Below are positions 11,568-30,385 of a stretch of 64,000 nt of DNA, one piece after another. The stretch spans positions 10,794 to 74,793 of the forward strand of contig CAYUKN010000002.1 of NCBI GenBank assembly GCA_964445325.1. Direction: 5' to 3'. Position 1 is the first letter of the stretch. Each line of letters starts with the position of its first letter. The stretch is from an uncultured Ectothiorhodospiraceae bacterium. GTDB taxonomy: Bacteria; Pseudomonadota; Gammaproteobacteria; XJ16; Halofilaceae. A program made the translations under genes and the position numbers. Below the pieces are notes generated by a model that had not been told where the DNA came from, made no database searches, and saw nothing but the letters and a program-made list of their open reading frames with translations.

Positions 11568-11642
11568 GGGCGGTTAGCTCAGCGGGAGAGCGCTGCCTTC
11601 ACACGGCAGAGGTCGCTGGTTCGATCCCAGCACCGCCCACCA
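11568..11642 (+). tRNA. tRNA-Val (anticodon CAC)
   Basis: 75-nt cloverleaf: GGGCGGT/ACCGCCC acceptor stem, GCTC/GAGC D stem, CTGCC-TTCACAC-GGCAG anticodon arm, GCTGG-TTCGATC-CCAGC T arm, encoded CCA. Confidence 0.97.
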
Positions 11643-19530: not shown

Positions 19531-21156
19531 ATGACGCGGGCACAACAAGCCAACCTCCAGCGTGGCGCGGCGTGGGTGCTCGCGCCGTTGGTCGCGTTCG
19601 CCCTGATGGCCGGCATCGGCATCTGGGCCCAGCAGTTCCGCGCCCCCGAGCCGCCGGTGCCGCTGATATGGCCGGCCGCCGGTGTCGCCCTGGCCTTGAC
19701 CTACCGCTGGGGCTCGCCGACCGCGGCGGGCATCGCCCTCGGGGCCGCCTGGGCCCACGCGGAGCTGGGCAACCCGTGGCCCGTCGCCGTCATGATGGGG
19801 TTGCTCACGGGCGTGGCCGGCATCGTCAGCGCCCGCGTCCTACGGCGCTTGCACTTCGACGCCCAGCTCGCCCGGGTACGCGATGCGTTGACTCTGCTCG
19901 GCGTGGGCCTGGGCCTGACCGCCGTGCTCAGTGCGGCCGGCGGCACGCTCGTGATCACGGGCCTGTCGCCGGCATTCCCGCACACGTTCGGTCTTTGCTG
20001 GATCGCCGACGCCATGGGGATGGTGCTCTTGGCGCCGCCTTTGATCTCGGTGCGCATGCCGCAGACGCCCGCGCCCCGGGACGCCGAGGCGGCCCTGTGG
20101 ATCGGCCTGGGTGCCGTATGCGTCTACGGCGTTTATGCGGGCGCGCTCAGTCCACCCGCGGCGCTCGCCGCCTCGTATGCAGTTTTCCCGCTCATCCTGG
20201 CCGTGGCGTTGCGCTTCGGCGCTGCCGTCACGTGCACGGCCGTGGCCGCGATCGCGGTTGTCGCACTGGTCTGCACGGGCCTGGGCACGGGACCGTTCGC
20301 CCAGGTGAGCCTGCTCGCGGACATGCTCTCGCTGCACGCGCATCTGGCCATGCTCGGGGTCACGGGACTGGTGCTTGCGAGCGCCCGCAGCGAGCGCGAT
20401 GCCGCCGACGAGCGCGCACGCGAGAACTTGAGCGCACTGGCGCGGGCGGGGCGCCTCGATGCCATGAGCTCGATGGCCGCCGGGATCGCCCACGAGATCA
20501 ACCAGCCGCTGTCCGCGGTCAACAGCTACGCCCACGCGGCGCAGCGCATGCTGCGCGACGGTCGCTCGCCGGAAGAGGTCGCCGGCGCGCTGGAGCGGGT
20601 GGTGACCGGCAACGAGCGGGCCGCGGCCATCGTCCGGCGCGTGCGCACGTTCCTGCGCAGTGGCGACGAGGAGCGCCAGCAGGTCGATCTCAACGAGCTC
20701 GTATGCGAGGCGGTCGACCTCGCCGCGCCGGAATTCCGACGCGAGCGCGTCCAGCTCGTCACCGACCGCACATCGCAGCCGTTGCTGGTACGAGTCGACG
20801 CCGTCGCGATTCGCCAGGTCGTGGTCAACCTGCTCCAGAATGCGCTCGAGGCGATCGGCGACGCCGCCGCACACGGCCCCGGCGAAGTGTGCGTAAAGAC
20901 CCGGGCGCTCAGCGAGGACATGTGGGCCGAGGTGGCGGTCGAGGACAACGGGCCTGGCCTGCCCGATAGCGATCACCAGGAGTTGTTCGAGCCGCTGGTC
21001 ACCCAACGGGCCAACGGCACCGGCCTGGGTCTCTCGATCGTGCGATCACTCGTGGAATCCCACGAGGGCACCGCCGAGGCGCGCAATGGCGACACCGGCG
21101 GGGCCGTATTCACGGTCCGCTTGCCCTTGGACGCAGTCAAACGGAAGGCAGCATGA
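19531..21156 (+). CDS. MASE1-domain sensor histidine kinase
   Basis: IWPAAGVALA and WIADAMG (MASE1); AHEINQPL H-box, NLLQNA, DNGPG, GTGLGLSI. Confidence 0.92.
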   Translation: MTRAQQANLQRGAAWVLAPLVAFALMAGIGIWAQQFRAPEPPVPLIWPAAGVALALTYRWGSPTAAGIALGAAWAHAELGNPWPVAVMMGLLTGVAGIVSARVLRRLHFDAQLARVRDALTLLGVGLGLTAVLSAAGGTLVITGLSPAFPHTFGLCWIADAMGMVLLAPPLISVRMPQTPAPRDAEAALWIGLGAVCVYGVYAGALSPPAALAASYAVFPLILAVALRFGAAVTCTAVAAIAVVALVCTGLGTGPFAQVSLLADMLSLHAHLAMLGVTGLVLASARSERDAADERARENLSALARAGRLDAMSSMAAGIAHEINQPLSAVNSYAHAAQRMLRDGRSPEEVAGALERVVTGNERAAAIVRRVRTFLRSGDEERQQVDLNELVCEAVDLAAPEFRRERVQLVTDRTSQPLLVRVDAVAIRQVVVNLLQNALEAIGDAAAHGPGEVCVKTRALSEDMWAEVAVEDNGPGLPDSDHQELFEPLVTQRANGTGLGLSIVRSLVESHEGTAEARNGDTGGAVFTVRLPLDAVKRKAA

Positions 21157-21779
21157 GCGACAAGCGAGTCTTCATCGTCGACGACGACCCCGACGTGCGC
21201 GATGCCACCACGCTATTGATCGAGACAGCGGGCTATACGACGGCGAGCTACGCCTCGGCCGACGAATTGCTGGAGACGGTCTCTGCCGACGACGGCGGCT
21301 GCCTTGTCCTCGACGTGCGTTTGCCCGGCATGAACGGGCTGGATCTACAGCGCGCGCTCGCCGAGCGCGGCATCCGCATGCCCATCATCTTCATCACGGG
21401 CCACGGCGATGTGCCGATGGCGGTGCAGGCGCTCAACGAGGGGGCATTCGACTTCCTCGAGAAACCGCTCGACGACGAGGCCCTGCTCGATCGCGTCCAA
21501 AAGGCGATCGCTGAGGATGAGCAGCGGCGCTCGCGCGAGGCCACCCAGGCCGACGTCGAGGAGCGCCTGGATCGGCTCACACCGCGCGAGCGGCAAGTCA
21601 TGGAGGGCATCCTCGAGGGTAAGCTCAACAAGGTCATCGGCTACGAGCTCGACATGAGCACACGCACGGTGGAAGTACACCGAGCGCGTGTCCTCGACAA
21701 GCTCGGCGTACGCAACGCCTCGGAGATGGTGCGCTATGTGCTCACGAGCCCCCAGTACAGCGACTGGCTACCCCATTAG
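21153..21779 (+). CDS. FixJ/LuxR-family response regulator
   Basis: VFIVDDD, LDVRLPGMNG, ITGHGDV, FLEKP, LTPRE...NKVI...TVEVHR HTH; ATGA overlap with the kinase. Confidence 0.93.
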   Translation: MSDKRVFIVDDDPDVRDATTLLIETAGYTTASYASADELLETVSADDGGCLVLDVRLPGMNGLDLQRALAERGIRMPIIFITGHGDVPMAVQALNEGAFDFLEKPLDDEALLDRVQKAIAEDEQRRSREATQADVEERLDRLTPRERQVMEGILEGKLNKVIGYELDMSTRTVEVHRARVLDKLGVRNASEMVRYVLTSPQYSDWLPH

Positions 21780-21904: not shown

Positions 21905-23068
21905 CTAGGCGTCGGCGGCCCTTGCACCACGCTGCTGGGCTGGGATCCAGAGCTCGAAACGCGACCCCGCTGCGTTCGACTCGGCCAGCTCGAGCCGTCC
22001 ACCGTGGGCGGCGACGAGTTCGGACGCGATCGACAGGCCCAACCCCGTACCGCTGCGCCAGGGCGTACGCTCCTGCTCCCCCAGCAGCGTCCCGAGGCCA
22101 GTCGGCATCCCCGGCCCCTCGTCGGCGACCCAGATGCGTACCCCATCGCCGTCGGGCTTGGCGCCGACACGGACACTCCCTTCGGTTCGCGCCGCCGCCA
22201 TTGCCTGGACGGCATTGCGGCACAGATTGAGCAGCACGCGGAATAGTTGGTTGATGTCGGCGTTGAGCTCGAGGCCCGCCGGGATCTCGTTGTGCCAGGC
22301 GTAGGGGGTATTGCTGCCGATACCGGCGATCGCGGCAACGTCGTCGGCCAATGTCGCCAGATCGATCGCGCTGGGCTCCGGCGTGGGCTCCTTGACCCGA
22401 CCCTGCGCCAGGGTACCGTCACAAAGCCGAATCGCCCGATCCACCGTGCCGTGCAGCCGCGGCAGCACCCGATGCACCGTCGGATCGTCCGAGCGCGATA
22501 GCGTGCGCGAGAACAGGTGCAGCGAGTGCAAGACGTTGCGCAAGTCGTGCGCCACCTTGCTGACGGCCATCCCGAGCAGCGCTAGCTGGTGTTCGCGCAA
22601 ATCGCGCGCCACGGTGACCAGGCACTCGCGCCCGTCGAGCGTCATGCGCGTCGCCGTAATCTCGGCGGGGAGGAAGTCGCCACCGCGGCGCCGGCAAGAG
22701 AGCTCCCGGGTCTGCCACGTCCCGTGTCGCCGCACCTTGGCGAAGAAGGCCTCGAGATACGCCTGCTCGAACGGATGCATATCCGTAGGCGAGAGCGTGC
22801 GCAGCTCCTCGCGGTCATAGCCGAGCAACTCGCCAGCGGCTCGATTGGCCTCGACGATGCGATTGGCCGCCGGATCGACCACGAACAGCGGATCGTAGAC
22901 GGCATCGAAGATCGCTCGGAAGCGCTCGGCGTCGCCACCCTCGTCGCGCTCGCCCCCCCGCTCGCCGGCCCAGGCCGCCGCCTCGGCGGCCAGGGTGTCG
23001 GCAAGCCCGGCCTCTCCCGCCGGCAGGTGACGGGCCAAGCGATCGGCCAGCTCGCGGTGCTGCGTCAT
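21905..23068 (-). CDS. PAS-domain cytoplasmic histidine kinase (orphan)
   Basis: PAS (FDAVYDPLFVVD, EANRAA, RRRGGDFLPAEIT); VAHDLRN, LNLCRNA, DEGPG, GTGLGL. Confidence 0.88.
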   Translation of the reverse strand: MTQHRELADRLARHLPAGEAGLADTLAAEAAAWAGERGGERDEGGDAERFRAIFDAVYDPLFVVDPAANRIVEANRAAGELLGYDREELRTLSPTDMHPFEQAYLEAFFAKVRRHGTWQTRELSCRRRGGDFLPAEITATRMTLDGRECLVTVARDLREHQLALLGMAVSKVAHDLRNVLHSLHLFSRTLSRSDDPTVHRVLPRLHGTVDRAIRLCDGTLAQGRVKEPTPEPSAIDLATLADDVAAIAGIGSNTPYAWHNEIPAGLELNADINQLFRVLLNLCRNAVQAMAAARTEGSVRVGAKPDGDGVRIWVADEGPGMPTGLGTLLGEQERTPWRSGTGLGLSIASELVAAHGGRLELAESNAAGSRFELWIPAQQRGARAADA

Positions 23069-23216: not shown

Positions 23217-23285
23217 GGGGCAGGCGCCGCGGCTCGCGTGGCGAGGGCGCCAGGTGGAAAACGACCCGAATGGGGAGATCGAACC

Positions 23286-24284
23286 ATGAATCAACTGAAC
23301 AGGAATGCCAATCGTGGCAGCGCATTCGGCCTCTCGCTGCTCGCCAGCCTCGCCGTGGCGTCGCCCACGGTCGCGACCGCAGCGGGCAGCGTCGAGGGCA
23401 AGGGCGAGGATCCCTTCCGCACCGTGGAGGTGAGCCAGGACGAGGGCAATGTCGTCTACTGGGTGCTGCCGGGTCCGCGCGAGCTCGAAGCGGAGACCTT
23501 CGGCACGCCCGACAATCCCAAGATGCTGTTCCAGCCCAAGCTCGAGGCGGCCAAGCAGACCAAGGGCCCGCCGGCGACGCCCGATACACTCGAGAAGAAC
23601 CCGTTCCTCGTGGGCGTGCCCGAGAAGGCGCGCAGCGTCACCGAGGACGGGCGCTACATGCTCAACAAGCCCAACCCGTTCTCCAACAAGGCGCGCATCA
23701 TCTCGGGTGAGTTCGAGAGCTCGATGCGCGACGTCGTGCGCGCCGACCAAAAGGGCAAGCCGGGCCAGACACCCGACCAGGCCGACTTCGAGGCCGAGTT
23801 CACCGACCCCCAAGGCAACGAGTACCGGGTCGTGCTCGACCACGTCGTCCAGCCACCGTTCCCGGGCTATGAGACCCAGGGCGGGGTCTTTACCGAGGGC
23901 TTCCTCCACGGCGACACGGGTACGGGCACGCCGCTGATGCCGAAGCAATACACCTTCGCCGCCTGGTGGGGCCTGGGTGAGCTCTACATCAACGGCGAGC
24001 AGGTGGACAAAGGCCGGGTGATGCACCTGATGACCACGGAGGTGGTCCGGGACAAGGACTATAACCTGGCCTTCAGCGACGATCTGCCGCTGGGACCGGA
24101 CCAGCGCCACATCAGCGACCAAGAGCATCACACGCACCTGATGATGCCGCCGGTGCGGGGCGTGCCCGGGAAGGGCCCGGTATTCGACCCCGTGCCGACG
24201 CAGTTCGAGTTGCCCAACGGCAAGAACCAGCCGTTCATGCACATCATGTTCGAGCAGGACCAGCTCACCAGCAACGAGCAGTAA
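23286..24284 (+). CDS. Uncharacterised exported His/Met-rich protein
   Basis: GGAG RBS, signal peptide ending ATA-A, strong GC3 bias; motifs FLHGDTG, VMHLMT, EHHTHLMM, FMHIMF; family not recognised. Confidence 0.8.
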   Translation: MNQLNRNANRGSAFGLSLLASLAVASPTVATAAGSVEGKGEDPFRTVEVSQDEGNVVYWVLPGPRELEAETFGTPDNPKMLFQPKLEAAKQTKGPPATPDTLEKNPFLVGVPEKARSVTEDGRYMLNKPNPFSNKARIISGEFESSMRDVVRADQKGKPGQTPDQADFEAEFTDPQGNEYRVVLDHVVQPPFPGYETQGGVFTEGFLHGDTGTGTPLMPKQYTFAAWWGLGELYINGEQVDKGRVMHLMTTEVVRDKDYNLAFSDDLPLGPDQRHISDQEHHTHLMMPPVRGVPGKGPVFDPVPTQFELPNGKNQPFMHIMFEQDQLTSNEQ

Positions 24285-24308
24285 CGGCTTCGAGCCGGCT
24301 AGCAGCCG

Positions 24309-24335
24309 ACGGCCGCGGGCCTCGCCCGCGGCCGT
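24309..24335 (+). terminator. Perfect 12-bp hairpin between the exported protein and cupredoxin genes
   Basis: ACGGCCGCGGGC-CTC-GCCCGCGGCCGT followed by TTGTT. Confidence 0.6.
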
Positions 24336-24380
24336 TTGTTGAGCGGCGCCGCAACGACTGCAACAAGGGGGAATGACGCG

Positions 24381-24740
24381 ATGAAACCGTCGACAACAGG
24401 CCGCCTGGCCTTACTGGTATTGGGTGTCGCGGCCGCGGCGATGGCGGGCCCTGCTGCGGCCGAGGACGTGCGCACGGTGCAGATCGAGGCGAGCGAGTTC
24501 GCCTTCGAGCCGGCGACGATCGAGGCCGAGGCGGGCGAGCGCCTGCGCATCGAGCTCGTCAATCAGGGCAGCCTCAGCCACAACCTGCACCTCGAGGGCG
24601 ACGCCCGGACCGACACGATCCAGAGCGACAAGACCGCCGCGGTGACGTTCACCGTACCCGAGTCCGGGTCGGTCGAATTCTTCTGCAATGTCCCCGGCCA
24701 CAAGCAGGCCGGCATGACCGGGCGCGTCGTGGTCCAGTGA
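24381..24740 (+). CDS. Exported cupredoxin (type-1 copper, plastocyanin/azurin-like)
   Basis: Signal peptide; HNLH and FFCNVPGHKQAGM give the His/Cys/His/Met ligand set; start ATG 24381. Confidence 0.9.
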   Translation: MKPSTTGRLALLVLGVAAAAMAGPAAAEDVRTVQIEASEFAFEPATIEAEAGERLRIELVNQGSLSHNLHLEGDARTDTIQSDKTAAVTFTVPESGSVEFFCNVPGHKQAGMTGRVVVQ

Positions 24741-24840: not shown

Positions 24841-25134
24841 TCAGCCGCCGTCCTCGGCGTCGCCATTACCCCCATCGCCCGAATCCTTGTCCTCCATACC
24901 CTCCATGTCGACGAACTTCCAGTCGGCCTTGGTCAGCTCGCCGTCGTTGTCGATGTCCTCGCGCTTGGCCTCGGCCTCGGGCACACCGGCATCGGTGGCC
25001 TCCTCGACGGTGATGGTGCCGTCGCCGTTGGCATCGGCCTGCTCGAACGGCGGGCGCTCCTGCGCCGCCGTCGCCACCAACGGTAGCGCAATGGTGAGCG
25101 CCCCGATGAGTCGCGTTATTAGCGTGCTTTGCAT
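24841..25134 (-). CDS. Small secreted acidic EF-hand protein
   Basis: Signal peptide; DANGDGTITVEE and DIDNDGELTKAD EF-hand loops; start ATG 25134. Confidence 0.8.
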   Translation of the reverse strand: MQSTLITRLIGALTIALPLVATAAQERPPFEQADANGDGTITVEEATDAGVPEAEAKREDIDNDGELTKADWKFVDMEGMEDKDSGDGGNGDAEDGG

Positions 25135-27132: not shown

Positions 27133-27705
27133 TTGTCGCAACCAACCGACAACACGCTGACCCGGCAGGCCCACGAATGGATCAAGCCCGCCCTGGGGCC
27201 AGGGCGGCGGGCACTCGACGCCACCGCGGGCAACGGTCACGACACGCTGTTCCTGGCCGAGGCCGTTGCCCCGGGCGGCCGGGTCGACGCCTTCGACATC
27301 CAGGGGCTCGCGCTCCGCCGCGCCCGACGCCGCGTGGGCGCGCTCGTGCACCGCGTGCGGCTATGCTGGCACCGCGCCGACCACGCCCGCATTCCGCGCC
27401 ATCTCGGGGCCGCCGCGATCGATGCCGCCATGTTCAATCTGGGCTGGCACCCGGGCGGCGACCGGCGGCTGGTCACCCGTCCGGCCACCACCCTGGCCGC
27501 GCTGAGCGCCACCGCCGAACGCCTGCGCTCCGGCGGACGCCTCTCGGTTGTCGCCTATCGCGGCCACCCGGGCGGCGCGGCCGAGGCCGAGGCCGTCGCC
27601 GACTGGCTCGAGCGCCTCGATGGTGCGTTTCGTGTCGAGCCGGCGCAGCCGGCGAGCGCGCGCGACCACGCCCCCGTGCTCTACCGCGTCTGGGTGGTCC
27701 GTTGA
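27133..27705 (+). CDS. Class I SAM methyltransferase, YtqB/MnmM family
   Basis: DATAGNGHDT, FDIQ, FNLGWHPGGD, YRGHPGGAAE. Confidence 0.8.
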   Translation: MSQPTDNTLTRQAHEWIKPALGPGRRALDATAGNGHDTLFLAEAVAPGGRVDAFDIQGLALRRARRRVGALVHRVRLCWHRADHARIPRHLGAAAIDAAMFNLGWHPGGDRRLVTRPATTLAALSATAERLRSGGRLSVVAYRGHPGGAAEAEAVADWLERLDGAFRVEPAQPASARDHAPVLYRVWVVR

Positions 27706-30173
27706 TCCAGCTTGCCCCGGCAACGGCGCAGCGCTTGCGCCAGTTGACTCGCCGAGGCGTAGCGCCGCTGCGGCTCCTTCTCCAGGCAGCGGTTGGTGAT
27801 CGTGGTCGCGCAGGTCGGTAGCTCCGGGCGCAGGCGCCGGAGCTCGCGGTGGCGATGGTGGCTGATCCGATACATCAGGCTCGACAGCGAGTCGCCCTCG
27901 AACGGCATCTCGCCCGACAGTAGCTGGTACAGAGTCACACCCAGGGAGAACAGATCGGAGCGCCCGTCTAGCGCACGCGATGCGAGCTGCTCCGGCGACA
28001 TGTACGAGGGACTGCCCAGGATCGTGCCAGTGCGTGTCTGGCGCTCATCGAGCAGGCAGGCGACACCGAAATCGGTCACCGTGACATGGCCCGTGGCGCG
28101 ATCGTAGACAATGTTGTCCGGCTTGATGTCGCGATGCAGCACATGCTCGGCGTGCGCGGTCGCCAGGGCATCGGCGACCTGCGCGAGTGCATCGAAGACC
28201 TCATGGGCGGGCAACAGCTCACCGGACTCGGCGTGGGCGTTGAGTGGCGTCCCCCGCAGGTAGTCCATCGCGATGTAGGCGAGATCCTGCTCCTCGCCGA
28301 CGTCGTAGACCGTGACGATGTTCGGATGCGACAGGCGCCCGGCCGTCTCCGCCTCGCGCAGGAAGCGCTGCTTGACCTCCTCGAGCGTCTGGCCCTCGAA
28401 CTCCTGATCGAGCGGCATCGTCTTGATCGCCACCTGGCGCCCGATGCGGGCATCTTCGCCCAGGAACACCGTACCCATGGCACCTTTACCGAGCTCGCGC
28501 TCGATCTGATAGCGCCCCAGAACGGGCTTGGCCGCGTCTTCTTGATCCAGGGCGAGCGCCTGGGTGGAGCTGCCATGGCGCCCGGCCAGGGTGACGCTGT
28601 CCTGGAGTCGATCGCAGCGCTGGGCACGCTCGGCGGCGTCGCGGTAGGCGCCGGCGTAGTGGGTGCAGAATCGGAAGGCCTCGGCCGCTTCGGGCAGGCG
28701 GCGGCGGCGCTCCAGGTCGAGGGCGAGGCCATACATGCGCTCGACCGTGGCGGTGTCGGGATCGCACTGGCGCAGGCAGCGCAGCGCATCATCGAGGCGC
28801 CCGGCCTCGCGATGGGACTCGGCGAGCGCCCGATTGGCACGATTGACCGCGTCGCGCAGCGAGGCCACACGTGCTCCCACCCCCCGGGCACCGACGATAG
28901 CCGCATGGCCGACCACCAGTGCAGTTACGGGTGCCATCAACGGGATCCAGGCGTTTCGCACCAGCAGCGTCACAAGCTCGGCGTTCACGGCGACGACGCC
29001 AACCAGCGCCGTCACGATCCAGCCGGCGGCCGTACCCAGGCGCGGTACCGCCAGCGCGAGATAGATCAGCACCAGCGCGAAGACGGCCGCACGCACCCCG
29101 ATCGCCCACGGTGGCGTCGAGACCAGGCTTTGTTGGTGGAGACCGGCGACGACGCGGGCCGCCCGGGCCGCCGGGGGCAGCGCCCCCGCGGCCTCCGTGG
29201 CCACCGCGGGGGCCAGTCCCACCACGACGCTGCGCTCGGTGAACGCGGTCGGCTCATGCGAACCCGCCAGCACATCGGCGGCCGACACCGCGTCCATGCG
29301 CACCGAATCGCCGCCGGTCGAGCCGGCGAGGCGCACCGCCAGGCCGGGCCCCGTGGCGAAGCGGCGCTCGCCCACGCGCAGGCGGTGGCCGCGTTCGACG
29401 CCGATAGCGCCGGCCTCGACACCCCGGGCCTGGGCGTAGACGAGCAGCGCGAACGAGGGCAGCCATGCCTCGGCGTGCGTCCGGGCCAGGCGGATCGCGC
29501 CATCGCCGCTGGCGGCCGACTCCAACAGGCCGACCCCGGCGGCTGCGCCGGCGATCGGCTCGACCGGGGGCTGCAAGTCCCCGGCGAAGGCCCGGGACCG
29601 CGGGGCCAACCAGTGCAGCGGCCACCGATTCGCCGGCGCCCCATCCAGGGCAACGCGCTCGAACGGGGGGGCCAACCCGGTGGCCGGCCGGTCCACGCGA
29701 CGAAAATCGGCGCCGACGATAGTGGCGCCGTGGGTTCGCAGGCTGCGCCCGAGGGCAGCGTCGGTGCCCAGGCGTTGGCGGGCCTGCGCGAGCACCCTGC
29801 GCGCGCCTTCGCCCAGCCCGCCGCCCGCCTCCGCGGCCAGCCCATCGAGCACCCGGAGCGGGTAGGCGTACTGCGGCTGATCCAGGGCCAGTGCCAAACC
29901 GACGGCCGCCGGATCCCCCGCGTGGACACGCTCGTTGAGCCGCGCCAGGCGATCCCGCGGCCACGGCCATGGGCCGACCTGCTCGATCGCGGCCTCGTCG
30001 ATGACAACCATCGTGACCGGCGCGTCCGCGCCGGGCGCCTCACCGAGCGTGCCCATGGCGTCGAATACGACCCGCTCGAGCGGACGCAGTACCCCCGCCG
30101 CGGTCGCGAGCACGGTCGCGGCGACGATCACGAAGGCGATGATCCCGTTGCGGTAGTGTAGCGCTTTAGCCAA
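27681..30173 (-). CDS. CHASE2-domain Hanks-type Ser/Thr protein kinase
   Basis: CHASE2 (VVIDEAAIEQVGPWPWPR), 3 TM, then GKGAMGTV, VAIK, HPNIV, HRDIKPDN, DFG, GSPSYMSPE, DLFSLG; start set at TTG 30173. Confidence 0.9.
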   Translation of the reverse strand: MAKALHYRNGIIAFVIVAATVLATAAGVLRPLERVVFDAMGTLGEAPGADAPVTMVVIDEAAIEQVGPWPWPRDRLARLNERVHAGDPAAVGLALALDQPQYAYPLRVLDGLAAEAGGGLGEGARRVLAQARQRLGTDAALGRSLRTHGATIVGADFRRVDRPATGLAPPFERVALDGAPANRWPLHWLAPRSRAFAGDLQPPVEPIAGAAAGVGLLESAASGDGAIRLARTHAEAWLPSFALLVYAQARGVEAGAIGVERGHRLRVGERRFATGPGLAVRLAGSTGGDSVRMDAVSAADVLAGSHEPTAFTERSVVVGLAPAVATEAAGALPPAARAARVVAGLHQQSLVSTPPWAIGVRAAVFALVLIYLALAVPRLGTAAGWIVTALVGVVAVNAELVTLLVRNAWIPLMAPVTALVVGHAAIVGARGVGARVASLRDAVNRANRALAESHREAGRLDDALRCLRQCDPDTATVERMYGLALDLERRRRLPEAAEAFRFCTHYAGAYRDAAERAQRCDRLQDSVTLAGRHGSSTQALALDQEDAAKPVLGRYQIERELGKGAMGTVFLGEDARIGRQVAIKTMPLDQEFEGQTLEEVKQRFLREAETAGRLSHPNIVTVYDVGEEQDLAYIAMDYLRGTPLNAHAESGELLPAHEVFDALAQVADALATAHAEHVLHRDIKPDNIVYDRATGHVTVTDFGVACLLDERQTRTGTILGSPSYMSPEQLASRALDGRSDLFSLGVTLYQLLSGEMPFEGDSLSSLMYRISHHRHRELRRLRPELPTCATTITNRCLEKEPQRRYASASQLAQALRRCRGKLDQRTTQTR

Positions 30174-30385
30174 GGCCGATCCTTTCTGCGTGCCGGGCGC
30201 GAGCGGCGCCGCCCGCCCCACCCGGACACGAGCCAGCGCGAGGCGAGGTTAGCACGCGCCCGCAGGGCCGCAAGCGCGCGCCGTCGGCGCCATCGGGATG
30301 GCACCGCCGGGCACCACGCGGCTCGGCCTTTGCATGGTCGGTCTGCGCCCGTAGCCTTGGGTTGCCACCTACCCCCGGAGACGCC

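Follow-up and report, generated by a model that had tools for sequence, protein, structure and literature searches.

What does an exported protein that belongs to no described family do beside a small copper protein of a familiar kind? The question is raised by a 64,000-nucleotide stretch of contig CAYUKN010000002.1 (positions 10,794 to 74,793) from an uncultured Ectothiorhodospiraceae bacterium. This whole stretch is hereafter the window, and all coordinates refer to it unless a locus number precedes them. Here the gene that we call X (23286..24284, + strand) is followed on the same strand by the gene for a type-1 copper cupredoxin (24381..24740). We find X to be a member of an undescribed family whose fold is without match among solved structures. 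What is new is the protein family and the fold; the operating logic, that of a periplasmic redox enzyme with a small carrier, is familiar. Our preferred reading, which we hold to be probable with real room for doubt, is that X is the catalytic subunit of a periplasmic two-component oxidoreductase, with a redox metal bound by His and Met residues and the cupredoxin as electron carrier.

The pair had been singled out earlier from the DNA letters (the original prediction) as an oxidoreductase or a copper chaperone with a dedicated electron carrier. The oxidoreductase half of that proposal has gained from the fusions to cytochrome c and pyrroloquinoline quinone (PQQ) domains described below, whereas the chaperone half has lost ground.

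The X family and its fold

Gene X is an open reading frame (ORF) with its ATG at 23286 and its stop codon at 24282-24284, and encodes 332 amino acids. A Shine-Dalgarno sequence, GGGGAG, is read at 23272..23277 (+), 8 nt 5′ of the start codon; because it precedes the ATG, this start is preferred over a GTG at 23238 that would give a longer product and has no ribosome-binding site. The first 32 residues (23286..23381, +) read as a Sec-type signal peptide with predicted cleavage after A30-T31-A32. The original prediction had placed both genes correctly, as reading of the ORFs confirmed, and had given the spacer between them its right length of 96 bp. It had also called the mature part of X Cys-free, which extends to the full-length protein: Cys is absent from the whole of X.

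In what follows, the closer clade comprises loci L001-L051, at least 42% identical to X, and the distant clade sequences that are 34-41% identical. Among 116 closer-clade homologues the mature part is free of Cys in 112. A lipobox replaces the plain signal peptide in 57, and a Tat-like RR motif is found in only 4. Some other members of the family carry SLH or type IX secretion system (T9SS) sorting domains. These signal peptides, lipoboxes, rare Tat motifs, Cys-free mature parts and sorting domains together indicate that the X family lies outside the cytoplasm.

That X belongs to no recognised family, as the original prediction had it, was borne out by every comparison made. Pfam and NCBIfam scans at E≤0.1 returned no family, and no PDB sequence matched at E≤10, whether X alone or a 119-sequence profile served as query. 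AlphaFold2, given the 119-sequence alignment, yielded a mainly beta model (predicted local distance difference test, pLDDT, 90.4; predicted template modelling score, pTM, 0.85). Its disorder is confined to the signal peptide, with pLDDT <50 over residues 1-35. Searched with Foldseek against 350,542 PDB chains, this model found nothing better than E=0.18, with template modelling (TM) scores <0.2. A second, independent AlphaFold model, of the distant-clade member P0121 (37% identical to X; pLDDT 90.4), gave a best E of 0.19 and TM of at most 0.26 against the PDB. For both models the matches do not rise above chance (E≥0.18, probability ≤0.11); the highest-ranking of these non-significant neighbours include several beta proteins that bind haem, namely a catalase-related protein, Shp and nitrophorin. 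A characterised family with no metal was likewise looked for with Pfam, NCBIfam, the PDB profile and Foldseek, and none matched X.

Particular candidates were also considered. Multicopper oxidases were sought through their Cu-oxidase cupredoxin domains, of which X has none (0 Pfam families at E≤0.1), and X has no Cys. NirK, which combines two cupredoxin domains, a type-1 Cys site and a His3 type-2 site, gave no Pfam or NCBIfam match and no Foldseek match to its structures, and here too Cys is missing. CopC, CusF, PCuAC, YcnI and Cu/Zn-SOD are families that possess Pfam models; Pfam-A, PDB profile and Foldseek searches for them were all empty. For PHM/DβM there was neither a Pfam Cu2_monooxygen nor a Foldseek match, and the order of motifs is unlike. 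When long and distant members of the family were scanned with Pfam, known domains appeared as additions to X and never inside it. A Sod_Cu clue in P0279 was rejected, as it scored 24.6 bits against a cutoff of 28.9 and covers an N-terminal extension that has no SOD His ligands. The literature, including copper and cupredoxin papers and queries by locus tag and accession, yielded no description of the family, and an RNA-seq paper on Haloferax denitrification, with its supplement, does not mention the X and cupredoxin genes.

The X family is a real one, though of modest size. Among 5.8 billion proteins, a word-indexed search picked out 235 relatives, all 'hypothetical' and none with a Pfam domain; a further 147 came from a search that started with a distant member. 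Exhaustive hidden Markov model (HMM) search of 1.84 billion cluster representatives gave only 355 at E≤1e-3, of which 89 reach E≤1e-30. We use as working definition an exported, Cys-free beta protein with D164, Y180, H208, W228, H247-x-M249, R255, H284, Q315 and H319-x-M321-x-E/D323 (numbering of X). The X of the window has every one of these sequence features and scored 1.1e-160 in the family jackhmmer search. In some single polypeptides the X domain is in tandem, as two to four HMM stretches with or without a terminal cupredoxin: L064 7779-9593 (604 aa), L080 512-3157 (881 aa), P0219 (595 aa), P0243 (871 aa) and P0220/P0221.

Homologues are 34-80% identical and come from more than 10 phyla of bacteria and archaea, mainly from salt-loving microbes. 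The closest relative among the genome loci is from Halofilum (78% identity). Halophilic gammaproteobacterial loci are from Halofilum, Ectothiorhodospiraceae, Marinobacter, Halomonas and Arhodomonas, and alphaproteobacterial ones from Rhodovibrio, Limimonas and Fodinicurvata. Other bacterial loci are from Desulfobacterales, Opitutales, Bipolaricaulia, Bradymonadaceae, Spirochaetaceae, Chloroflexota, Acidimicrobiia and Nitrospinota; the archaeal loci are from Natrinema, Halorussus, Nitrososphaeraceae, Geothermarchaeota and Methanolobus. Two further occurrences, on Haloferax mediterranei pHM500 and Halogeometricum borinquense pHBOR02, came from plasmids searched by tblastn. The window sequence itself was matched in sediment DNA metagenomes only.

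Linkage and fusion to electron carriers

The cupredoxin gene begins with an ATG at 24381, preceded by the Shine-Dalgarno sequence AAGGGGGA (24365..24372, +; sequence reading), and encodes 119 amino acids, of which about residues 1-27 form a signal peptide. The product passes the gathering thresholds of two Pfam models: Cupredoxin_1 (PF13473; 53.0 bits, 3.8e-14, cutoff 27) and Copper-bind (PF00127; 42.5 bits, 9.1e-11, cutoff 21.2). Its ligands, in the pattern His ... Cys-x4-His-x4-Met, are H67, C102, H107 and M112, a complete type-1 set, just as the original prediction described it; these columns are at least 95% conserved among 44 partner cupredoxins. CopI models are its best NCBIfam resemblance. 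As equivalogs they stay far below cutoff (NF051440, 73.8 bits against 280; NF047895, 22.7 against 200). CopI carries His-rich and His/Met-rich segments (PMC13308877), and the mature cupredoxin of the window, EDVRTVQIEASEF...GRVVVQ, has neither by the same feature definition (PMC13308877). On these scores and missing segments the identification of the cupredoxin as CopI was rejected.

Linkage was assessed with jackhmmer on six-frame ORFs of all fetched loci. A dedicated carrier, as originally predicted, should accompany X in its homologues, and it does: X has a cupredoxin as same-strand neighbour or fusion partner at 47 of the 51 closer-clade loci, and at two of the remaining four the contig stops just past X. 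At about 40 loci the cupredoxin is a separate gene on the same strand that starts 7-190 bp 3′ of X. Current annotation reflects the pair, with PGAP (Prokaryotic Genome Annotation Pipeline) calling a 'hypothetical protein' and then a 'cupredoxin domain-containing protein' on the megaplasmids of Haloferax mediterranei (HFX_RS18735/18740) and Halogeometricum. A C-terminal cupredoxin fusion is found at seven of the 80 genome loci (L033, L036, L039, L044, L046, L047 and L048), in members of Bipolaricaulia, Chloroflexota, haloarchaea and Thaumarchaeota.

Fusions were also counted among long proteins. Family members of at least 400 aa (n=45) carry a cupredoxin domain in 22 cases, a c-type cytochrome in 3, a T9SS tail in 2, and an SLH domain and a PQQ beta-propeller in 1 each. 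The architectures vary. One or two X copies are joined to a cupredoxin in P0220, P0221, P0246 and P0311, and the distant-clade members P0175 and P0212 have cupredoxin fusions as well. P0257 has its cupredoxin N-terminal to X, from which it follows that fusions arose independently. X is joined to three CxxCH cytochrome c domains in P0292 and to two cytochrome c domains in P0251, and in P0297 one polypeptide carries a PQQ propeller, X and a cupredoxin. Downstream of X at a Nitrospinota locus is a gene whose product unites a cupredoxin with two cytochrome c domains. Repeated independent fusion to two kinds of one-electron carrier is, judged by analogy, the signature of a redox enzyme and not of a chaperone; we read X in this way because its carriers swap as they do with NirK.

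Conserved residues and genomic context

Conservation tables locate a putative metal-site or catalytic region at 23775..24254 (+), holding D164, Y180, H208, H247, M249, R255, (H282), H284, Q315, H319, M321 and E323. Residues H208, M218, H247, M249, H282, H284, H319, M321, E323 and D325 are invariant in 119 closer homologues. Across clades we used 84 bacterial and archaeal sequences of 34-100% identity, scoring full-length members. All of these keep D164, Y180, H208, H247, M249, R255, H284, Q315, H319 and M321; W228 is lost only rarely, and with few exceptions position 323 holds Glu or Asp. The His residues thought in the original prediction to mark a metal site are therefore conserved, four His and two Met (H208, H247, H284, H319, M249 and M321) being kept across bacteria and archaea. 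Its motifs are all present: LHG (H208), MHLM (H247, M249), HHTHLMM (H281, H282, H284) and MHIM (H319, M321). Its description of X as His/Met-rich does not hold, as the mature composition is ordinary (2.7% His, 3.3% Met). What is unusual is position and conservation, with 5 of the 8 His and 2 Met fixed in conserved beta-strand motifs.

The pairs and triplet H247/M249, H282/H284 and H319/M321/E323 are spaced i, i+2 on predicted strands (238-252, 281-287 and 318-322); with that spacing on a beta-strand, the residues of a set all point to the same side. Position 282 is His in closer-clade members and often Gln in distant ones. The change is reciprocal with residue 195: the closer clade has Y195 with H282, and many distant-clade members have H195 with Q282 (L001-L083). 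This clade-specific His swap, at codons 23868-23870 and 24129-24131 (+), suggests a migrated ligand, the two positions then being near in space. Covariation by mutual information with average product correction (effective number of sequences about 150) gave weak contact hints, with L248-L285 among the top long-range pairs, and suggests that the H247 and H284 strands may be neighbours. In our preferred reading, the conserved His and Met residues of X most likely bind one or two copper ions.

Between the two genes, inside the spacer at 24285-24380, a perfect GC-rich hairpin of 13 bp is followed by TTTGTT (24308..24336, +). The minimum free energy of the RNA from 24284-24345 is -43.4 kcal/mol (z = -4.9), and none of 200 shuffles was as stable. 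About 20 of 23 homologous spacers have a strong stem-loop directly past the X stop codon (L001, L004, L007, L009-L011, L013, L015, L016, L021, L025, L027-L031, L035, L041 and L042). Its presence and position are conserved over distant taxa and its sequence is variable. The hairpin is probably a partial terminator or a stabiliser of the mRNA 3′ end that would tune the ratio of X to cupredoxin, and it may leave room for a separate cupredoxin promoter.

Upstream of X in the window are genes for a MASE1 histidine kinase (19531-21156, +) and a LuxR-type response regulator (21153-21779, +), and divergent from it one for a PAS histidine kinase (21905-23068, -). An ABC-2 exporter also flanks X. Convergent with the cupredoxin gene is that of a small exported EF-hand protein of 93 aa (24841-25122, -; Pfam EF-hand_5, 3e-8). 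The loops of this protein are of the calcium-binding type; it also resembles lanmodulin faintly, at 17.8 bits well short of the cutoff of 135, and its gene is not conserved beside X in other loci. Elsewhere in the window, an 846-aa ORF (27681-30221, -) has a long N-terminal membrane or sensor part and a C-terminal Ser/Thr kinase signature, HRDIKPDN, and tRNA-Val (CAC) at 11568-11642 (+) is the sole tRNA of the 64 kb. In the haloarchaeal loci L086 and L087, PAS/bacterio-opsin-activator regulators and a CBS-domain protein adjoin X. Such sensor genes beside X hint at redox or oxygen control; the regulators are non-homologous between loci.

No third conserved partner emerged when two flanking genes per side were scanned with Pfam at 38 loci of the closer clade and 30 of the distant one. 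Minorities of loci share certain neighbours. Copper-type P1B ATPases adjoin the module in about five (L031, L033, L036, L041 and L043), and MerR-family regulators are near it in seven. AhpD-like CMD genes occur at six loci and extracytoplasmic function (ECF) sigma/anti-sigma pairs at four, and thioredoxin-reductase-like flavoproteins are found nearby. PQQ-type GSDH dehydrogenases are near X at five loci, including L001, L019, L020 and L066. On plasmid p1 of Natrinema sp. 74 (L046 7914-11185) an X-cupredoxin fusion is immediately followed by a gene for a cupredoxin-GSDH (PQQ) fusion; such a pair of neighbouring enzymes, each tagged with a cupredoxin, suggests a short chain of extracellular electron transfer. 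None of these minority metal and oxidative-stress genes was seen at the Marinobacter loci or in the window.

Neighbour clustering had also put MerA at seven loci. This count was rejected after NCBIfam typing, which recognised true MerA in L017 and L025 only: the L044 MerA is below cutoff, the L060 and L080 proteins are thioredoxin-reductase-like, and two ATPases of L069 are not of the heavy-metal type. With true MerA at two loci, the mercury link is downgraded to a minority co-location. In Halomonas cerina (L025 5257-9518) a MerF-MerA fusion is divergent from a true merR, which lies immediately 5′ of X, with X and the cupredoxin on the merR strand. In Rhodovibrio sodomensis (L017) true MerA is about 1 kb from the module, and in Marinobacter sp. 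ELB17 (L013/L085) a truncated merR lies just 5′ of it. The co-location may reflect an insertion site for mercury islands or real co-regulation. Overall, neighbour genes hint weakly at envelope metal or oxidative stress, and context does not identify a substrate.

Proposed function and comparison with known systems

In the oxidoreductase that we favour, X would be an extracytoplasmic protein, soluble or lipid-anchored, with a beta-rich predicted fold. Copper would be held by H208, H247, H284, H319, M249 and M321 on neighbouring strands, joined by a fifth, variable His (H282 or H195), and D164, Y180, R255, Q315 and E/D323 would form a substrate pocket. The downstream cupredoxin would shuttle single electrons between the metal centre of X and the respiratory chain, a role that fused cupredoxins or fused c-type cytochromes would take in other lineages. 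Both the identity of the metal as copper and the catalytic role of X are inferred. Copper stands first among the possible metals because His/Met sites are here found in the oxidising periplasm, on a protein exported by the Sec or lipoprotein route, with a copper protein as partner and occasional copper genes as neighbours.

Electrons could flow either way, and we give the two directions roughly equal weight. In direction (a), X would be the electron sink: it would take electrons from the cupredoxin and use them to reduce or activate a small oxidant, for example O2, peroxide or an N-oxide; this is favoured by the fused or adjacent PQQ/GSDH proteins and by the AhpD, ECF sigma and thioredoxin-reductase-like neighbours. 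In direction (b), X would oxidise a reduced periplasmic species, with Cu(I) as prime candidate, and pass the electron to the cupredoxin. Favouring it are the two invariant HxM motifs, the copper ATPase and MerR neighbours, true MerA/MerR at two to three loci, the CopI-like partner and the bias towards halophiles.

A bolder form of the proposal, which we put forward only tentatively, makes X a cuproenzyme of new fold, with a Cys-free His/Met copper centre, a dedicated blue-copper partner and a chemistry so far unassigned to any protein family. One version that would fit the data is a chloride-tolerant, respiratory-chain-linked cuprous (metal) oxidase that replaces halide-sensitive multicopper oxidases in halophiles. 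Chloride stabilises Cu(I) and inhibits multicopper oxidases, and such an enzyme, if real, would explain how halophiles handle Cu(I) under these conditions. The data would fit as well with a CuM-like oxidase or monooxygenase that activates O2 or peroxide, driven through the cupredoxin by a PQQ dehydrogenase. By analogy this could be a prokaryotic periplasmic counterpart of the fungal electron chain from PQQ dehydrogenase to lytic polysaccharide monooxygenase (LPMO). An oxidant-reducing or O2-activating X would be a new terminal module for periplasmic electron-transport chains.

Several observations weigh against a copper oxidoreductase. The distant clade is usually without a nearby redox partner gene, and most loci, the window among them, have no metal-homeostasis or respiratory genes nearby. 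The hairpin could mean that X and the cupredoxin are not always co-transcribed. The set of His, Met, Asp and Glu residues could bind Fe, Zn, Ni, Mn or haem b.

This last point leads to a redox protein without copper, holding either non-covalent haem b by His and Met or Fe or Mn by His and carboxylates. His and Met are the classic axial pair of haem, as in cytochrome b562 and DOMON/CDH-type proteins, E/D323 and D164 would suit a His/carboxylate iron site, and linkage to electron carriers implies redox function and not copper specifically. The haem-binding proteins among the Foldseek neighbours also point this way, but those matches are at chance level (TM at most 0.26), and no DOMON, cytochrome b or cupin model matches X. 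Moreover, copper proteins commonly leave by Sec or lipoprotein export and take up their cofactor in the periplasm, which haem b proteins rarely do; the main partner itself contains copper, and where metal genes do occur nearby they concern copper and mercury rather than haem or iron. We regard a non-copper X as quite unlikely. X might instead be a non-catalytic buffer or chaperone for copper or soft metals in the periplasm, acting with a CopI-like cupredoxin in metal tolerance. The two invariant HxM motifs and lack of Cys are typical of periplasmic Cu(I) sites, CopI is the best NCBIfam resemblance of the cupredoxin, and a minority of loci have copper P-type ATPases, MerR-family regulators and MerA/MerF beside the module. 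A chaperone, however, would have no use for being fused to a PQQ propeller or to two or three c-type cytochrome domains, and X, with some 290 structured residues among which Arg, Asp, Tyr and Gln are conserved, is far larger and more constrained than known chaperones. X matches no copper chaperone in Pfam, metal genes are missing at most loci, and the cupredoxin falls short of CopI in score (73.8 against 280) and lacks its His-rich and His/Met-rich segments (PMC13308877). On balance we consider a buffer or chaperone unlikely.

Two further explanations deny X catalysis altogether, and both are very improbable. Strict pairing with one cupredoxin subfamily, and His/Met sites that could pass copper on, would suit an assembly or metallation factor that delivers copper to the type-1 site of the cupredoxin. 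No type-1 cupredoxin is known to need a dedicated insertase. Permanent fusion of chaperone to client, seen in at least 22 clusters, would be unusual; fusion to cytochromes c, which need no copper, would be contradictory; and a distant clade exists without a nearby cupredoxin. Alternatively, X could be a structural or binding protein of the envelope with neither metal nor redox function, and its proximity to a cupredoxin the accident of a mobile two-gene cassette. The otherwise highly variable contexts would agree with this, but hitch-hiking leaves unexplained the independent fusions with varied order and carrier type in distant phyla, and conservation falls exactly on His and Met.

A redox enzyme with its own carrier thus remains our preferred reading, and the family is found in cultured, genetically tractable organisms: Haloferax mediterranei (pHM500), Marinobacter and Halomonas. 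New families of copper enzymes are rare, and each has opened new chemistry, as with LPMOs, PmoD, CopG and thiocyanate dehydrogenase.

Among known systems, NirK with pseudoazurin or azurin offers a close parallel: a periplasmic His-ligated copper centre (for X a proposed one) and a carrier that is separate or fused. Fused variants of NirK have a C-terminal cytochrome c or an N-terminal cupredoxin extension, the same pattern of partner swapping as in the X family. X has no relation to NirK in sequence or fold, gives no match to Pfam Cu-oxidase or cupredoxin models and has no Cys, hence no internal type-1 site, and nir, nor and nos genes are not consistently nearby. The operating logic also resembles that of methylamine dehydrogenase with amicyanin. 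The cupredoxin of the window is, like CopI of Rubrivivax gelatinosus and Pseudomonas aeruginosa, a Sec-exported single-domain type-1 copper protein; CopI differs in not being known to pair with an X-like protein.

CopC/PcoC (with PcoA), CusF and PCuAC share with X the character of Cys-free, Sec-exported beta proteins with His/Met motifs of the HxM type, by which they bind Cu(I)/Cu(II) in the oxidising periplasm. Oxidation of PcoC-bound Cu(I) by a partner copper oxidase is a precedent for direction (b), although the partner of PcoC is a multicopper oxidase and that of X a one-electron carrier. These proteins are single small domains of 80-150 aa with their own Pfam families, whereas X is larger, with about 290 structured residues, is predicted to fold differently and has additional polar residues that are conserved. 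PHM and DβM have Cys-free CuH (His3) and CuM (His2Met) sites on beta-sandwich strands, an HxH motif and an external one-electron donor. H208, H247 and H319 of X, together with H(282)xH284 and M321, could in principle form a PHM-like pair of sites; the order of motifs is different in X, and H282 is often Gln in distant members. The cuprous oxidases CueO and PcoA/CopA carry out the periplasmic detoxification of Cu(I) to Cu(II) that X and its cupredoxin might replace, and combine type-1 copper with a His-ligated catalytic copper. Multicopper oxidases have three cupredoxin domains, four HxH/HCH motifs that include Cys, and Tat export, none of which X has; unlike in those enzymes, the type-1 copper of the X module sits on a separate small protein.

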